From the NCBI RefSeq assembly GCF_003334305.1, contig NZ_QOWS01000004.1: a stretch of DNA of 64,000 bases; one strand, given 5' to 3'. Position numbers and translations under genes: made by a program. Each line of letters begins with the position of its first letter. Within the stretch, counting starts at the first letter, position 1. The notes beneath the pieces were generated by a model. It ran no database searches. It was not told the origin of the DNA and saw only the letters and a program-made list of their open reading frames with translations. Shown one piece after another: positions 992-9,863 of the stretch. The stretch comes from Escherichia coli (GTDB lineage Bacteria > Pseudomonadota > Gammaproteobacteria > Enterobacterales > Enterobacteriaceae).

Positions 992-1334
992 AATCTTTCC
1001 TCGCTTAAAAAACAAGACGCCTTATCATAGCAGCCAGCCTCTTGATACCCAATCTCTTGCTTCTGGAAAAACGTGGTAATAGAGAAAGAGGTTAATTTCA
1101 TTTGGCAAAGGGAAGTATCATCAGCAAAATATTCGCTGTAGAGGTATCGAACTTCCTGACTTTTTACCCTATTTCCCATCCTGATGCGTAATAATCCCAA
1201 TTTATCACATTGATTTTATCGCCACTCATATTGATACGTATCACTGCCCCTATTCAGAGTCCTGTTTCGTATCATATCTGTGTTTTTTTAACGTCATCAC
1301 ACTTCCTACCTCCCCTAACGCTTATCGTCGTTTC

Positions 1335-1350
1335 TGGCGTAAATCTTGCC
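1335..1350 (+). promoter_or_regulatory. Candidate sigma54 (-24/-12) promoter upstream of xdhA
   Basis: TGGCGT-aaatc-TTGCC: GG at 1336-1337 and GC at 1348-1349 with canonical spacing, about 95 bp upstream of the xdhA start. Confidence 0.5.
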
Positions 1351-1444
1351 TGCTTAGACTAAATCTTTGCCATAAGAACCAAATGTTCAAATCGAGGGGA
1401 TTTCTATGGAAGCGCGGGAAGCAACCGCTACGGGTGAATCATGC

Positions 1445-3703
1445 ATGCGCGTCGATGCCATTGCTAAGGTCACCGGGCGGGCACGATATACTGACGATTA
1501 TGTTATGGCGGGCATGTGTTATGCGAAATATGTACGTAGCCCTATCGCACATGGTTATGCCGTAAGTATTAATGATGAACAAGCCAGAAGTTTGCCGGGC
1601 GTACTGGCGATTTTTACCTGGGAAGATGTGCCTGATATTCCATTTGCTACTGCTGGGCATGCCTGGACACTTGACGAAAACAAGCGCGATACCGCCGATC
1701 GCGCACTGCTAACTCGCCATGTTCGTCATCATGGTGACGCCGTTGCCATCGTCGTGGCCCGCGATGAACTCACGGCAGAAAAAGCGGCGCAATTGGTCAG
1801 CATTGAGTGGCAAGAATTACCCGTTATCACCACGCCAGAAGCGGCGCTGGCAGAAGACGCTGCACCAATCCATAACGGTGGCAATTTACTGAAACAAAGC
1901 ACGATGTCGACGGGTAATGTCCAACAAACAATCGATGCCGCCGACTACCAGGTACAGGGGCACTATCAGACCCCCGTTATTCAACATTGTCACATGGAAA
2001 GCGTAACATCGCTGGCGTGGATGGAGGATGACTCGCGAATTACCATCGTTTCCAGCACCCAGATCCCGCACATTGTTCGCCGCGTGGTTGGTCAGGCGCT
2101 GGATATTCCCTGGTCATGCGTACGAGTCATCAAACCGTTTGTCGGTGGCGGTTTTGGTAATAAACAGGATGTACTGGAAGAGCCAATGGCGGCATTCCTG
2201 ACCAGCAAGCTTGGCGGCATTCCGGTGAAAGTTTCCCTTAGCCGTGAAGAGTGTTTCCTCGCAACCCGTACCCGCCACGCTTTTACCATTGACGGGCAAA
2301 TGGGCGTGAACCGCGACGGAACATTGAAAGGTTATAGTCTGGATGTTCTGTCTAACACCGGCGCTTATGCATCTCACGGGCACTCCATCGCTTCTGCGGG
2401 GGGGAATAAAGTCGCTTACCTTTATCCTCGTTGTGCCTACGCTTACAGTTCAAAGACCTGCTATACCAACCTCCCCTCGGCTGGTGCGATGCGTGGTTAT
2501 GGCGCGCCACAAGTCGTATTTGCCGTTGAGTCTATGCTTGATGACGCCGCGACAGCGTTAGGTATTGATCCTGTTGAAATTCGTTTACGCAACGCCGCCC
2601 GCGAAGGAGATGCTAATCCGCTCACGGGCAAACGTATTTACAGCGCAGGGTTGCCGGAGTGTCTTGAAAAAGGCCGGAAAATCTTTGAATGGGAAAAACG
2701 CCGTGCAGAATGCCAGAACCAGCAAGGCAATTTGCGCCGCGGCGTTGGCGTCGCCTGTTTTAGCTACACCTCTAACACCTGGCCTGTCGGCGTAGAAATA
2801 GCAGGCGCGCGCCTTCTGATGAATCAGGATGGAACCATCAACGTGCAAAGCGGCGCGACGGAAATCGGTCAGGGTGCCGACACCGTCTTCTCGCAAATGG
2901 TGGCAGAAACCGTGGGGGTTCCGGTCAGCGACGTTCGCGTTATTTCAACTCAAGATACCGACGTTACGCCGTTCGATCCCGGCGCATTTGCCTCACGCCA
3001 GAGCTATGTTGCCGCGCCTGCGCTGCGCAGTGCGGCACTATTATTAAAAGAGAAAATCATCGCTCACGCCGCAGTCATGCTACATCAGTCAGCGATGAAT
3101 CTGACCCTGATAAAAGGCCATATCGTGCTGGTTGAACGACCGGAAGAGCCGTTAATGTCGTTAAAAGATTTGGCGATGGACGCTTTCTACCACCCTGAAC
3201 GCGGCGGGCAGCTCTCTGCTGAAAGCTCCATCAAAACCACCACTAACCCACCGGCGTTTGGCTGTACCTTTGTTGATCTGACGGTCGATATTGCGCTGTG
3301 CAAAGTCATCATCAACCGCATCCTCAACGTTCATGATTCAGGGCATATTCTTAATCCACTGCTGGCAGAAGGTCAGGTACACGGCGGAATGGGAATGGGC
3401 ATTGGCTGGGCGCTATTTGAAGAGATGATCATCGATGCTAAAAGCGGCGTGGTCCGTAACCCCAATCTGCTGGATTACAAAATGCCGACCATGCCGGATC
3501 TGCCACAACTGGAAAGCGCGTTCGTCGAAATCAATGAGCCGCAATCCGCATACGGACATAAGTCACTGGGTGAGCCACCAATAATTCCTGTTGCCGCTGC
3601 TATTCGTAACGCGGTGAAGATGGCTACCGGTGTTGCAATCAATACACTGCCGCTGACGCCAAAACGGTTATATGAAGAGTTCCATCTGGCAGGATTGATT
3701 TGA
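1445..3703 (+). CDS. xdhA: Xanthine dehydrogenase, molybdopterin-binding subunit
   Basis: 752-aa form starting MRVDAIAKVTGRARYTDDY; KPFVGGGFGNKQD motif typical of the xanthine oxidase family. An in-frame ATG at 1406 has a stronger Shine-Dalgarno (SD). Confidence 0.93.
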   Translation: MRVDAIAKVTGRARYTDDYVMAGMCYAKYVRSPIAHGYAVSINDEQARSLPGVLAIFTWEDVPDIPFATAGHAWTLDENKRDTADRALLTRHVRHHGDAVAIVVARDELTAEKAAQLVSIEWQELPVITTPEAALAEDAAPIHNGGNLLKQSTMSTGNVQQTIDAADYQVQGHYQTPVIQHCHMESVTSLAWMEDDSRITIVSSTQIPHIVRRVVGQALDIPWSCVRVIKPFVGGGFGNKQDVLEEPMAAFLTSKLGGIPVKVSLSREECFLATRTRHAFTIDGQMGVNRDGTLKGYSLDVLSNTGAYASHGHSIASAGGNKVAYLYPRCAYAYSSKTCYTNLPSAGAMRGYGAPQVVFAVESMLDDAATALGIDPVEIRLRNAAREGDANPLTGKRIYSAGLPECLEKGRKIFEWEKRRAECQNQQGNLRRGVGVACFSYTSNTWPVGVEIAGARLLMNQDGTINVQSGATEIGQGADTVFSQMVAETVGVPVSDVRVISTQDTDVTPFDPGAFASRQSYVAAPALRSAALLLKEKIIAHAAVMLHQSAMNLTLIKGHIVLVERPEEPLMSLKDLAMDAFYHPERGGQLSAESSIKTTTNPPAFGCTFVDLTVDIALCKVIINRILNVHDSGHILNPLLAEGQVHGGMGMGIGWALFEEMIIDAKSGVVRNPNLLDYKMPTMPDLPQLESAFVEINEPQSAYGHKSLGEPPIIPVAAAIRNAVKMATGVAINTLPLTPKRLYEEFHLAGLI

Positions 3704-5107: not shown

Positions 5108-6886
5108 TTATGTGTTTAACAACTCATATTTCTTAATCTTGCGATAGAGCGTAGCAATGCCGATGCCCAGTTCATCAGCAACTTGCTTCTTGCTGTTATG
5201 ACGTGAAAGCGCCTCGCGGATCATTTGCTTTTCCATCTCCTCCAGCGCCGTGCCGCCCGCATCATCGAGTGACAGGTGCGCCTCACTGACCTCTGTTACA
5301 TCACTTTGCTCCGTTGTGCCATTATTCAGCAGATTTGGCGGCAATAGCGTGCTGTCGATAACTTCACCTGAAGGAACTACGTTAACCAGATATTCCATCA
5401 AATTGCTTAACTCGCGCAGGTTTCCGGGCCAACGATGCTTACGCAATATTTCGACGACATCGGGAGCAATGCCAGGATAAACCGATCCCAGACGACGGGT
5501 ATGCAGATGTAAAAAGTAATGCACCAATAGTTCAATATCTTCCTGACGTTCACGCAGCGGTGGCAGAGTTATCGGGATAACATTAAGTCGGTAGAAGAGA
5601 TCTTCGCGGAATTTACCTTCGGCAATGAACTGGGCCAAATTCTGATTAGTTGCAGAAATGATGCGAATGTCGACTTGTATTGGGCTACTGGCACCAATCG
5701 GCAGAATTTCACGCGCCTCAATAGCGCGCAGTAATTTAGCCTGCAACATTAATGGCATATCACCTATTTCATCGAGAAACAGCGTGCCCGTATTCGCCGC
5801 CTGAATCAACCCTGTTTTACCGTTGGCAGAAGCGCCAGTAAATGCGCCTTTAACATAACCGAACAGTTCGCTTTCCAGAAGCTGCTCCGGAATCGCGGCA
5901 CAGTTGATAGCAATAAAGGGTTTATTCCGTCTTCCGCTCAACTTATGGATTGCTCGGGCGACGACTTCTTTACCCGTGCCGCTTTCACCAACCACCATAA
6001 CGCTGGATGGGCTGGGTGCAATACGGCTAATGAGTCGTTTTAATTGCCACATAACACGGCACTCGCCAACCAATTGTTCAATATGTGGTTCATCAGGTGC
6101 ATTTGCTACAGAAAAACTGGTATGCGATTGGTGAAATGCCATTAAAAATAATTGTCGGCCCTGAATGTTATGCAATTGACCAATGATTAATTCACTTTTA
6201 TCGTCCCACGAAACAATATGCTGCATATGTCCATGAGTAAAATTACTCTCAAATGTTAATGGTCTGAAACGGATAGGTTTCCCAATAATATTATTTTGTA
6301 CAACACCAAGTGTTTTTAAGGCAGTCTGATTAACAAACTGAACCCGACTTTCATCATCAACAACTAATACGCCCTGATCCATATTATCGATCATGGTCGC
6401 GAATATTTTACTGATGTTATCTCCTGGCCCCTGATCCTCCAGAAGTTTCGAAACAAAAATGGTGGATATATGGCGAACATAATCAGAAAATTCGCGTAAA
6501 TTATCACTGATATGCTCTTGTTGCTCGTGGGTAACGGCAATCAAACTTATCACCCCAACACAACGATCCTGTAAAATGACAGGCGTACCCAGAAATGCTT
6601 TTTCGCGGCAATTTTCTTTACTATCGCAACCTTCGCAAAGGGGATCGAAGCGAGACTGTGTCACAACTTTTTCAGTTTTCGTTTCCAGGACGTGGCGGAG
6701 CAGGCGTGAGTTGCCGCTCAACTGGCGACCAAGAAACTTCCCATACGCGCCCGTTCCGGCGACGCGACACAAGTTTTCATCAACGATCTCAACCTCAAGC
6801 TGCAAAACGCTGGCAAGCATTCTGGCAAAACGCTGAATTGTCGGTTGAATTTGCATCAATACTGACTGCGTAGTAGCAAGCTCCAT
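5108..6886 (-). CDS. ygeV: Sigma54-dependent transcriptional activator (enhancer-binding protein)
   Basis: 592 aa; Walker A GESGTGKE, GAFTGA sigma54-contact motif, C-terminal helix-turn-helix (QVADELGIGIATLYRKI), N-terminal sensory region. Confidence 0.92.
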   Translation of the reverse strand: MELATTQSVLMQIQPTIQRFARMLASVLQLEVEIVDENLCRVAGTGAYGKFLGRQLSGNSRLLRHVLETKTEKVVTQSRFDPLCEGCDSKENCREKAFLGTPVILQDRCVGVISLIAVTHEQQEHISDNLREFSDYVRHISTIFVSKLLEDQGPGDNISKIFATMIDNMDQGVLVVDDESRVQFVNQTALKTLGVVQNNIIGKPIRFRPLTFESNFTHGHMQHIVSWDDKSELIIGQLHNIQGRQLFLMAFHQSHTSFSVANAPDEPHIEQLVGECRVMWQLKRLISRIAPSPSSVMVVGESGTGKEVVARAIHKLSGRRNKPFIAINCAAIPEQLLESELFGYVKGAFTGASANGKTGLIQAANTGTLFLDEIGDMPLMLQAKLLRAIEAREILPIGASSPIQVDIRIISATNQNLAQFIAEGKFREDLFYRLNVIPITLPPLRERQEDIELLVHYFLHLHTRRLGSVYPGIAPDVVEILRKHRWPGNLRELSNLMEYLVNVVPSGEVIDSTLLPPNLLNNGTTEQSDVTEVSEAHLSLDDAGGTALEEMEKQMIREALSRHNSKKQVADELGIGIATLYRKIKKYELLNT

Positions 6887-7148
6887 AGCTTTACCTTCCA
6901 GACTTACTTAAAAGTCGATCATTGAAGACGTTGATGGTTCACAGATCATGATGATATTAACTCAGGCGAAATTGGCTTTGATAAAAACATAAGATTTTTA
7001 TCATTTTCTAATGAAATTATGGAAGAGATATCACATTTCTATATCAATATGAGAATTACGGCGGTGAGTTTATCAAACTGAAGAGAGATAGCCTGTCCCT
7101 TTATCTTATTTCTGATACTTAGCAGCAAATAAATAACGCGATAAAAAA

Positions 7149-7164: not shown

Positions 7165-7361
7165 ATTTTACAAACAACCGGAAGCTGGCATCAATTTGTG
7201 ATCAACCCCACACATTATCCGTCAAATTAGTCTTTTGCAGCCCCGTGGATAATTCTGGCACACTTATTGTTAGTCCCAGGTATAGCTGTGAAAACACCAA
7301 TCACTTTGGCAAGTCACAGTGAAATAAACCACTTTGCCTGTCATTCCACTACCGGGACTTT

Positions 7362-8552
7362 ATGATGAAAACTGTTAATGAGCTGATTAAGGATATCAAT
7401 TCGCTGACCTCTCACCTTCACGAGAAAGATTTTTTGTTAACGTGGGAACAGACGCCAGATGAACTGAAACAAGTACTGGACGTTGCCGCAGCATTAAAAG
7501 CACTGCGTGCTGAAAACATCTCAACCAAAGTCTTTAATAGTGGATTAGGTATTTCCGTATTCCGCGACAACTCCACCCGTACCCGCTTCTCTTATGCTTC
7601 CGCGCTTAACCTGCTCGGCCTTGCACAACAAGATCTCGACGAAGGCAAATCACAAATCGCTCACGGCGAAACCGTGCGTGAAACCGCCAATATGATCTCC
7701 TTCTGCGCCGACGCTATTGGTATTCGCGACGATATGTATCTGGGCGCAGGCAACGCCTATATGCGTGAAGTTGGCGCTGCACTTGATGACGGTTACAAGC
7801 AGGGTGTACTGCCACAGCGTCCGGCTTTAGTGAACCTGCAATGCGATATTGACCACCCGACTCAGTCAATGGCTGACCTCGCGTGGTTACGTGAACACTT
7901 TGGTTCACTGGAAAACCTGAAAGGTAAAAAAATCGCCATGACCTGGGCCTACTCTCCAAGCTATGGCAAACCGCTCTCTGTACCACAAGGCATCATCGGT
8001 CTGATGACTCGCTTCGGTATGGATGTCACCCTGGCCCATCCGGAAGGCTACGACCTGATCCCGGATGTGGTTGAAGTGGCGAAAAACAATGCTAAAGCAT
8101 CTGGCGGTAGCTTCCGTCAGGTCACCAGCATGGAAGAAGCGTTCAAAGATGCAGACATCGTTTATCCGAAGTCATGGGCACCTTACAAAGTGATGGAACA
8201 GCGTACCGAATTGCTGCGCGCTAACGATCACGAAGGCTTAAAAGCACTGGAAAAACAGTGTCTGGCACAGAACGCGCAACACAAAGACTGGCATTGTACT
8301 GAAGAGATGATGGAACTGACCCGTGATGGCGAAGCCCTGTACATGCACTGCCTGCCAGCTGATATCAGCGGCGTATCCTGTAAAGAAGGTGAAGTGACTG
8401 AAGGCGTATTCGAAAAATACCGTATCGCAACCTACAAAGAAGCCAGCTGGAAGCCTTATATCATCGCCGCGATGATCCTGTCCCGTAAATACGCCAAACC
8501 AGGTGCACTGCTCGAGCAACTGCTGAAAGAAGCGCAAGAACGCGTGAAATAA
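7362..8552 (+). CDS. ygeW: Transcarbamylase-family protein (carbamoyltransferase, unknown substrate)
   Basis: 396 aa; STRTR carbamoyl-phosphate-binding motif (FRDNSTRTRFS) and HCLPA motif. Confidence 0.9.
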   Translation: MMKTVNELIKDINSLTSHLHEKDFLLTWEQTPDELKQVLDVAAALKALRAENISTKVFNSGLGISVFRDNSTRTRFSYASALNLLGLAQQDLDEGKSQIAHGETVRETANMISFCADAIGIRDDMYLGAGNAYMREVGAALDDGYKQGVLPQRPALVNLQCDIDHPTQSMADLAWLREHFGSLENLKGKKIAMTWAYSPSYGKPLSVPQGIIGLMTRFGMDVTLAHPEGYDLIPDVVEVAKNNAKASGGSFRQVTSMEEAFKDADIVYPKSWAPYKVMEQRTELLRANDHEGLKALEKQCLAQNAQHKDWHCTEEMMELTRDGEALYMHCLPADISGVSCKEGEVTEGVFEKYRIATYKEASWKPYIIAAMILSRKYAKPGALLEQLLKEAQERVK

Positions 8553-8609
8553 CCCCTCGGGCCGATCAACTGGTCGGCCCTCTATTTCCAGAGGCCAAAA
8601 GGATAGGAT

Positions 8610-9806
8610 ATGTCCGTTTTCTCATTGAAGATTGATATCGCCGATAACAAATTTTTCAACGGCGAAACATCACCGCTCTTTTCGCAAAGCCAGGCCAAAC
8701 TGGCGCGCCAGTTCCACCAGAAAATAGCTGGTTATCGCCCAACACCGCTTTGTGCGCTGGACGATCTCGCAAACCTTTTTGGTGTGAAGAAAATTCTTGT
8801 CAAAGACGAATCAAAACGATTCGGTCTGAACGCCTTCAAAATGCTCGGCGGTGCGTACGCCATCGCTCAATTATTGTGTGAAAAATATCATCTTGATATC
8901 GAAACGCTGTCATTTGAGCACCTGAAAAATGCCATCGGCGAAAAAATGACTTTCGCGACCACCACCGACGGCAACCACGGGCGCGGTGTGGCGTGGGCAG
9001 CGCAGCAACTCGGACAGAATGCGGTGATTTACATGCCGAAAGGTTCTGCTCAGGAACGCGTTGACGCCATTCTGAACCTCGGTGCCGAGTGCATCGTCAC
9101 GGATATGAACTATGACGATACCGTTCGCCTGACCATGCAACACGCGCAGCAGCACGGCTGGGAAGTGGTACAGGACACGGCATGGGAAGGTTACACCAAA
9201 ATCCCAACCTGGATCATGCAAGGCTACGCAACCCTGGCAGATGAAGCCGTCGAGCAAATGCGTGAAATGGGCGTAACCCCGACGCACGTTCTGCTGCAAG
9301 CCGGTGTCGGAGCAATGGCCGGTGGTGTGCTGGGTTATCTGGTCGACGTCTATAGCCCGCAAAATCTGCACAGCATTATTGTTGAACCTGACAAAGCTGA
9401 CTGTATTTATCGCTCCGGCGTCAAAGGCGACATCGTCAACGTTGGCGGTGATATGGCCACCATCATGGCGGGCCTGGCCTGTGGCGAACCTAACCCGCTG
9501 GGCTGGGAAATCCTACGTAACTGCGCCACCCAATTCATCTCCTGCCAGGACAGCGTTGCCGCATTAGGTATGCGCGTGCTGGGTAATCCGTACGGCAACG
9601 ACCCGCGCATCATCTCCGGTGAATCCGGCGCTGTCGGTTTGGGCGTTCTCGCGGCGGTTCATTATCACCCGCAACGTCAAAGCCTGATGGAAAAACTGGC
9701 GCTGAACAAAGATGCCGTGGTGCTGGTTATCAGCACTGAAGGCGACACCGACGTGAAGCACTACCGCGAAGTTGTCTGGGAAGGCAAACACGCTGTAGCA
9801 CCTTAA
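8610..9806 (+). CDS. ygeX: PLP-dependent diaminopropionate ammonia-lyase
   Basis: 398 aa; PLP-dependent threonine-dehydratase/tryptophan-synthase-beta fold; also called dpaL. Confidence 0.9.
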   Translation: MSVFSLKIDIADNKFFNGETSPLFSQSQAKLARQFHQKIAGYRPTPLCALDDLANLFGVKKILVKDESKRFGLNAFKMLGGAYAIAQLLCEKYHLDIETLSFEHLKNAIGEKMTFATTTDGNHGRGVAWAAQQLGQNAVIYMPKGSAQERVDAILNLGAECIVTDMNYDDTVRLTMQHAQQHGWEVVQDTAWEGYTKIPTWIMQGYATLADEAVEQMREMGVTPTHVLLQAGVGAMAGGVLGYLVDVYSPQNLHSIIVEPDKADCIYRSGVKGDIVNVGGDMATIMAGLACGEPNPLGWEILRNCATQFISCQDSVAALGMRVLGNPYGNDPRIISGESGAVGLGVLAAVHYHPQRQSLMEKLALNKDAVVLVISTEGDTDVKHYREVVWEGKHAVAP

Positions 9807-9863
9807 TCACCCTATTGGAACTACTCCCTGCAAAACGGGGAGTAAAAAATCTGGAGAAAAATA

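Follow-up and report, generated by a model that had tools for sequence, protein, structure and literature searches.

A conserved sigma-54 promoter upstream of xdhABC in Escherichia coli, with paired upstream dyads as putative binding sites of the activator YgeV and a 765-residue XdhA as the predicted product

FhlA at hyc/hyp, NorR at norV and PrpR at prpB are enhancer-dependent sigma-54 activators of Escherichia coli that lack a receiver domain. The region upstream of xdhA resembles the promoters controlled by these proteins in combining a GG-N10-GC element with paired dyads located more than 100 bp upstream. The product of the nearby gene ygeV is likewise built as they are, combining a sensory N-terminal part with AAA+ and HTH_8 domains, and its gene adjoins the presumed targets. 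In contrast to the FhlA, NorR and PrpR systems, the xdhA promoter exhibits a minority variant of the -24 box, TGGCGT, which is invariant across 12 genera, and the conserved element that it holds between enhancer and promoter is not recognisable as an IHF site. A further difference is that both the ligand and the DNA site of YgeV are only putative.

The window analysed here, a stretch of 64,000 nucleotides (64 kb), is the E. coli glyU-actS-xdhABC-ygeV region for purine and uric-acid catabolism. Its first 7 kb contain a tRNA-Gly gene, actS (ygeR, minus strand), xdhA, xdhB, xdhC, ygeV (minus strand) and then ygeW. XdhABC interconverts xanthine and urate and is encoded beside genes for anaerobic uric-acid degradation; together with the neighbouring ygeW-ygfT genes, xdhABC constitutes an anaerobic purine and uric-acid degradation cluster. 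Over the 685 bases that surround the promoter, identity reaches 100% with several E. coli strains other than K-12 and 99.7% with derivatives of K-12. For this part of the window, adding 2,998,900 to a position yields the coordinate in NC_000913.3. The K-12 coordinates of the sigma-54 sites at yqeC, ygfK and ygfT run 180 bp above the offset valid for xdhA and ygeW; thus, K-12 has approximately 180 bp more between ygeW and yqeC (window 7271 to 15560). In strain E2865, which is 100% identical over 1016-1700, RefSeq marks xdhA as a frameshifted pseudogene, whereas the xdhA ORF of the window is intact (765 aa). The tRNA-Gly gene lies at approximately 84-157 on the minus strand, and beyond it a site-specific integrase takes the place in E2865 that ygeQ holds in K-12, which suggests that this tRNA gene is an island integration site. 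The window begins just inside the junction. The coordinates of all relevant features are compiled in Table 1.

Table 1. Features of the xdhABC promoter region and of the related sites in the window, with the basis for each.
Feature	Position	Strand	Basis and remarks
Dyad A, TATCACATTGATT	1203..1215	.	Centre at about -152; phylogenetic footprint, PWM score 15.0
Dyad B, ACTCATATTGATA	1224..1236	.	Centre at about -131; phylogenetic footprint, PWM score 16.7
Central conserved block, T-tract + ATCACA-N-TT	1283..1304	+	About -78 to -57; multi-species alignment
Sigma-54 -24/-12 element of xdhABC, CTGGCGTAAATCTTGCC	1334..1350	+	Sequence, PWM, orthologues, published data
Predicted transcription start	1361	+	19 bp downstream of the motif centre (1342); convention of Bonocora et al., 2015
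Shine-Dalgarno GAGGGGA for ATG 1406	1394..1400	+	Anti-SD pairing, conservation
xdhA coding sequence, 765-aa form (predicted)	1406..3703	+	ORF, RefSeq/PGAP start, conservation
Internal Met14 ATG, annotated xdhA start in the K-12 reference (752 aa)	1445..1447	+	NC_000913.3
ygeV, sigma-54 activator gene	5108..6886	-	Pfam domains, gene order
Dyad TATCAATATGAGA, ygeV-ygeW spacer	7042..7054	.	PWM score 18.2
Perfect dyad TATCATAATGATA, upstream of ygfK	16710..16722	.	PWM score 20.1, best in the window
Dyad TCTCATATTGATA on the minus strand, upstream of ygfT	32080..32092	.	PWM score 18.2

The sigma-54 promoter of xdhA is already known, having been published in 2010 and again in 2015 and being recorded in EcoCyc. 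Zhao, Liu and Burgess (2010; PMC2831329, Table 2) included xdhA among 22 new genes of the sigma-54 regulon and gave its promoter sequence as tttcTGGCGTAAATCTTGCCTGctta. In their data, xdhA was up-regulated 4.9-fold on sigma-54 overexpression and down-regulated 2.1-fold in an rpoN deletion, so the dependence on rpoN that the preliminary description of this locus had proposed to examine was largely available in print. In the sigma-54 ChIP-seq study of Bonocora et al. (2015; PMC4591121), the site corresponds to peak OS29, with a fold-above-threshold (FAT) value of 11, the motif CTGGCGTAAATCTTGCC, a PSSM score of 10.9, and the code 'C', which denotes experimental confirmation in EcoCyc. The same table also lists sigma-54 sites at ygeW, ygfK and ygfT, as well as an intragenic one in yqeC, all of which fall within the window. 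In a gSELEX study of the RpoN holoenzyme, the ygeV/ygeW spacer is included and the region upstream of xdhA is absent; an NtrC site at xdhB/xdhC is reported in the same paper. An xdhA entry in a sigma-54 paper published in NAR in 2025 was set aside, as it refers to Pseudomonas putida, and a 2023 paper on xanthine oxidoreductase contains no regulatory data.

Read directly from the sequence, the element consists of TGGCGT (1335-1340), the spacer AAATC (1341-1345) and TTGCC (1346-1350). The GG at 1336-1337 occupies -25/-24 and the GC at 1348-1349 occupies -13/-12; the distance from G to G is 12 nt, and GG and GC are exactly 10 nt apart, which is the spacing of sigma-54 promoters. The preliminary description had presented this element as near-consensus and exactly spaced. 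The spacing is right, but the term near-consensus is only partly fair, given three mismatches to TGGCACNNNNNTTGCW (TGGCAC-N5-TTGCW). All three are outside the core and consist of TGGCGT in place of TGGCAC plus the last C. All the positions given in that description, including those of GAGGGGA (1394-1400) and of the in-frame ATG 1406, are correct.

Plain consensus counting in the 64-kb window detected no enrichment of sigma-54-like matches: 46 matches with two mismatches or fewer were found against 44.6 expected, the xdhA element not being among them, and the core TGGC-N7-TTGC was seen 4 times against 4.65 expected. A position weight matrix (PWM) was built from 130 published ChIP-seq sites (Bonocora et al., 2015), all of them located outside this window. 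Under this matrix, the xdhA element scored 15.4 bits, the best value among the 17-mers on both strands of the 64-kb window and equivalent to the 70th percentile among real sigma-54 sites; the published sites at ygfK and ygeW rank second and third. Since random sequence matched in composition yields about 1.0 site with so high a score per 64 kb, the sequence of the element is by itself not beyond chance.

Orthologous xdhA loci were gathered with one genome per species, and 29 enterobacterial loci include the upstream region. They represent 12 genera, namely Escherichia, Citrobacter, Kluyvera, Atlantibacter, Yokenella, Buttiauxella, Enterobacillus, Hafnia, Trabulsiella, Cedecea, Pluralibacter and Klebsiella (K. 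indica). TGGCGT-N5-TTGC was found upstream of xdhA in every one of these loci (29/29), 54-83 bp before the start codon, with the non-consensus GT of TGGCGT retained throughout and with diverging sequence on both flanks. This conservation bears on the suspicion that the -24/-12 match is a functionless chance occurrence, an idea with which both the count of the core pattern and the PWM score would agree, since they fall within the chance expectation for 64 kb. Position, preservation in 29/29 orthologous loci, and the published ChIP-seq and expression data nevertheless place the element above chance, and a fortuitous match can be considered refuted for practical purposes. The same evidence upholds the sigma-54 promoter that had been proposed for xdhA in the preliminary description.

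Two of the orthologous loci display additional features. The Cedecea locus (L026) has a second and stronger sigma-54 motif at 2718-2734, CTGGCATATTTATTGCT (17.7 bits), which lies in the same orientation 216 bp upstream of the xdhA sigma-54 motif and upstream of the dyads. In the Pluralibacter locus (L032), a different sigma-54 activator gene is located at 1978-2769, upstream of xdhA and on the same strand; its product and YgeV are 37% identical over 294 aligned residues.

Binding of sigma-54 need not be productive. The polymerase could be parked at this site as a closed complex that does not lead to transcription, xdhABC being expressed from another promoter, for example a sigma-70 one. Indeed, according to Bonocora et al. 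(2015; PMC4591121), the majority of sigma-54 sites appeared to be inactive in transcription under the conditions they used and sigma-54 overexpression affected few genes, and xdhA is absent from the genes induced in their study. However, xdhA responded in both directions to the level of sigma-54 in the work of Zhao et al. (2010; PMC2831329), and the search for a competing sigma-70-like promoter in the xdhA spacer returned nothing beyond chance (one weak match versus 0.7 expected). Moreover, in 12 genera the site is conserved at a fixed spacing to a pair of upstream dyads, as would be expected of a working enhancer-dependent promoter and not of an accidental binding site. A parked complex is accordingly regarded as highly improbable, and a functional sigma-54 promoter in front of xdhABC as nearly certain.

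The promoter described here and the published records (Zhao et al., 2010; OS29 in Bonocora et al., 2015; EcoCyc) coincide in sequence, gene assignment and predicted transcription start. They differ in that the published records measure to the start of the 752-aa form, whereas the leader predicted from position 1361 to ATG 1406, the start of the 765-aa form, is 45 nt long, and also in that the records include no upstream activator sites. The interval between 1361 and 1445 (84 nt) matches the distance from the predicted start to the 752-aa start of xdhA given for OS29. No experimentally mapped transcription start of xdhA was found in the searchable literature. Within the xdhA spacer no terminator-like site was detected, positions 1000-1500 gave no Rfam matches, and the leader (1361-1430) folded no better than shuffled sequence (z = -0.27); neither Rfam nor folding revealed any sign of a riboswitch or an attenuator in the leader.

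The preliminary description had also suggested that xdhA starts 13 codons upstream of the 752-aa form, at an ATG preceded by a strong Shine-Dalgarno sequence. ATG 1406 is in frame with ATG 1445 and is separated by 5 nt from GAGGGGA. The predicted pairing of this sequence with the 3' end of the 16S rRNA amounts to -8.0 kcal/mol, versus -3.8 kcal/mol for ATG 1445, where a weak Shine-Dalgarno-like GGTGA lies 7 nt upstream. The resulting proteins would begin with MEAREATATGESC... in the 765-aa form and with MRVDAIAK in the 752-aa form. Among 26 aligned XdhA sequences, Met1 is invariant (26/26), as are Gly10 and Cys13, whose third codon positions vary. Mean entropy at the first, second and third codon positions was 0.37/0.29/1.19 over codons 2-13 and 0.07/0.07/1.27 over codons 15-30; thus, the concentration of entropy at the third position, shared by both segments, identifies codons 2-13 as coding. 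Conversely, the frame 5' of Met1 is not conserved and is interrupted by stop codons in many loci. All the orthologues have a Shine-Dalgarno sequence (AAGGGGA, GAGGGGA or AGGAGA) in front of the upstream ATG.

Seven orthologous loci lack Met14: three of Trabulsiella and two of Buttiauxella encode Leu at this position, those of Enterobacillus and Hafnia encode Lys, and in all seven the 752-aa form has no ATG with which to begin. Alignments with homologues of solved structure (4-hydroxybenzoyl-CoA reductase, quinoline 2-oxidoreductase and nicotinate dehydrogenase) extend to residues 8-13 of the XdhA query, matching a G-x-S-x-x-R-V-D stretch. No structure of E. coli XdhA itself was present among the PDB matches, and no N-terminal proteomics of XdhA was found in the searchable literature. 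In every other strain examined, one K-12 derivative among them, the RefSeq/PGAP annotation places the start at 1406 and gives 765 aa (e.g., WP_000388150.1, 'MULTISPECIES ... [Enterobacteriaceae]'). At least 1000 contigs carry the 765-aa K-12 sequence and 51 the 752-aa form; only the K-12 reference entries (NC_000913.3, NP_417342.1, AAC75904.1) keep 752 aa.

That ATG 1445 is the real start in E. coli, or a second one used alongside ATG 1406, would be in keeping with the curated K-12 reference record and with the weak GGTGA in front of it. Nevertheless, this alternative appears improbable in view of the replacement of Met14 in seven loci, the coding substitution pattern of codons 2-13, the conservation of ATG 1406 together with its strong Shine-Dalgarno sequence, and the alignment of solved-structure homologues into the extension. 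Minor internal initiation at ATG 1445 may occur in E. coli. On comparative grounds, ATG 1406 can be designated with high confidence as the main start of XdhA, in agreement with the earlier suggestion, which the conservation of Met1 and of the Shine-Dalgarno sequence, the codon pattern and the lack of conservation of Met14 corroborate. The K-12 reference entry, of the type also used by UniProt, thus appears to be 13 residues short, and for this reason published sigma-54 distances to the xdhA 'gene start' would be 39 nt too long. The 765-aa start amends a single legacy record and is already standard in RefSeq.

Upstream of the promoter, the alignment of orthologues reveals two dyads, 13-bp near-palindromes with the consensus TATCAyAATGATA, whose centres are separated by 21 bp, that is, by two helical turns. 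The TGATA core of dyad B is conserved across orthologues. For the composite dyad search pattern, a 12-nt spacer was taken from the alignment; both dyads were retained by pattern in 28 of 30 sequences, and the dyad PWM located sites in the other two. Among scanned loci having the upstream dyad, its start lies 129-134 bp before the sigma-54 17-mer, and the sequence between the upstream dyad and the sigma-54 element is not conserved apart from the central block. In Hafnia, only one dyad-like site is present, and its distance differs.

The central block is a conserved segment located between the dyads and the promoter. Its TCAC is invariant in 30/30 sequences, and it maintains a fixed distance of approximately 38 bp to the -24 element. 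ATCACA likewise forms the left arm of dyad A. Binding sites for three known factors were considered for the block and rejected. By eye, it is a poor match to the IHF consensus WATCAANNNNTTR. Compared with a CRP site (TGTGA-N6-TCACA), the right half fits through ATCACA-N-TT and the left half reads TTTTA. As an FNR site (TTGAT-N4-ATCAA), 7 of 10 positions fit, which is unconvincing.

A symmetrised PWM was built from the orthologous xdhA dyads, and the three best matches outside xdhA were found upstream of the sigma-54 promoters of ygfK, ygeW and ygfT. The dyad of the ygeV-ygeW spacer is situated 213 bp upstream of the ygeW sigma-54 element (7255-7271, plus strand; published OS30; 13.9 bits under the sigma-54 PWM). 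The perfect dyad precedes the ygfK sigma-54 element (16891-16907, plus strand; published OS31) by 181 bp, and that of ygfT lies approximately 180 bp upstream of its sigma-54 element (31898-31914, minus strand; published OS32). Three dyad matches in the window reached 18 bits or more, versus 0.01 expected from shuffled sequence. In the four spacers that have a published intergenic sigma-54 site (xdhA, ygeW, ygfK and ygfT), the best dyad scores ranged from 16.7 to 20.1, compared with 10.8 or less in the other 17 of the 21 spacers in the window. A cis-element common to these four sigma-54 promoters was therefore found. The pairing recurs in three Kluyvera loci, where a ygfK-type sigma-54 element downstream of xdhABC has the dyad TATCATAATGAGA approximately 177 bp upstream, and it thus provides an independent replicate of what is seen in the window.

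The ygfK promoter (16880-16907) contains two overlapping sigma-54-like frames. Zhao et al. (2010) chose TGGCAAGAGTGGTGC and Bonocora et al. (2015) chose TGGTGCGATTGTTGC, 10 nt downstream; the downstream frame is favoured by the Kluyvera orthologues (GTGGTGCGAATGTTGCT) and by the sigma-54 PWM. A further dyad-like site, TCTCACATTGAGA (14.6 bits), is present inside yqeC at 15320-15332, upstream of yqeB. The published intragenic sigma-54 site IS34 (15560-15576, minus strand) precedes it by approximately 240 bp, a geometry unlike that of the other four promoters.

The claim of the preliminary description that the cluster encodes its own sigma-54 activator, ygeV, is substantiated by the Pfam domains of the protein: PAS (162-205), Sigma54_activat (273-439), an AAA lid and HTH_8 (548-587). 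No receiver domain was detected in YgeV by the Pfam scan, the N-terminus giving only PAS and a weak GAF-like match. YgeV appears to sense a ligand, as activators of the FhlA, NorR or PrpR type do; in a 2022 mBio paper it is renamed IsrR and called an 'orphan response regulator'. The gene is convergent and downstream of xdhC in most of the orthologous loci whose sequence reaches that far, and YgeV is the sole sigma-54 activator found in the cluster. Indirect evidence of dependence on YgeV comes from co-variation, Lamoureux et al. having placed xdhABC in a 'YgeV iModulon', and from a reported decrease of ygfT expression in a ygeV mutant. No description of a DNA-binding site for YgeV was found in the papers of the searchable literature that mention ygeV; the mBio paper defines no DNA site, and no experiment on YgeV binding DNA or directly controlling xdhA was found in the same literature.

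Taken together, recurrence and conservation suggest that the xdhA dyads are probably binding sites of YgeV. Alternatively, the dyads could be bound by another regulator, either a repressor or a global factor, with YgeV binding elsewhere. Being rich in AT, the motif is loosely similar to other AT-rich operators, and the dyad located 213 bp from the ygeW promoter is close to ygeV and could serve its autoregulation. Against this, the dyad is confined in the window to the four spacers with sigma-54 promoters, it stands at enhancer-like distances of 110-215 bp, its pairing with sigma-54 elements recurs in Kluyvera, and YgeV, with no other sigma-54 activator found in the cluster, possesses an HTH_8 DNA-binding domain. 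A different regulator is thus possible but doubtful. A broader reading, in which TATCAyAATGATA is a previously undescribed site for YgeV (IsrR) and in which xdhA, ygeW, ygfK and ygfT share one cis-pattern, is slightly favoured. This putative pattern would comprise one or two dyads placed 110-215 bp in front of the sigma-54 element, and the xdhA variant would add to it the invariant central ATCACA block and the invariant non-consensus TGGCGT.

According to the mechanism proposed here, sigma-54 RNA polymerase binds 1334-1350 as a closed complex, the binding being shown by published ChIP-seq data, and this complex would stay silent until an AAA+ enhancer-binding protein remodels it. YgeV, whose gene lies convergently just beyond xdhC, is the most likely activator. 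Its oligomers may assemble on the dyads at approximately -152 and -131, as conservation and the occurrence of the same motif at other sigma-54 promoters suggest, and would contact the polymerase by DNA looping across the central block. ATP hydrolysis would then open the promoter, in line with what is established for activators of this family. The predicted transcription start lies near 1361, and translation from ATG 1406 behind GAGGGGA would produce the 765-aa XdhA, with ATG 1445 as the internal Met14. As a whole, the explanation that xdhABC has a sigma-54 promoter, probably driven by YgeV through the dyads, and that XdhA starts at ATG 1406 is considered very likely.

The promoter and the longer start add nothing new, and the dyad prediction, which is possibly the sole new element of this study, is of modest wider interest. 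Earlier work has connected the cluster with urate homeostasis in the host, and probiotic strains have been made in which it is re-engineered. If true, the assignment of the dyads to YgeV would define the direct YgeV regulon and would offer a handle for the inducing ligand of the uric-acid degradation cluster in the gut. A defined enhancer site, together with the promoter layout, would make both the YgeV regulon and its inducer directly testable.
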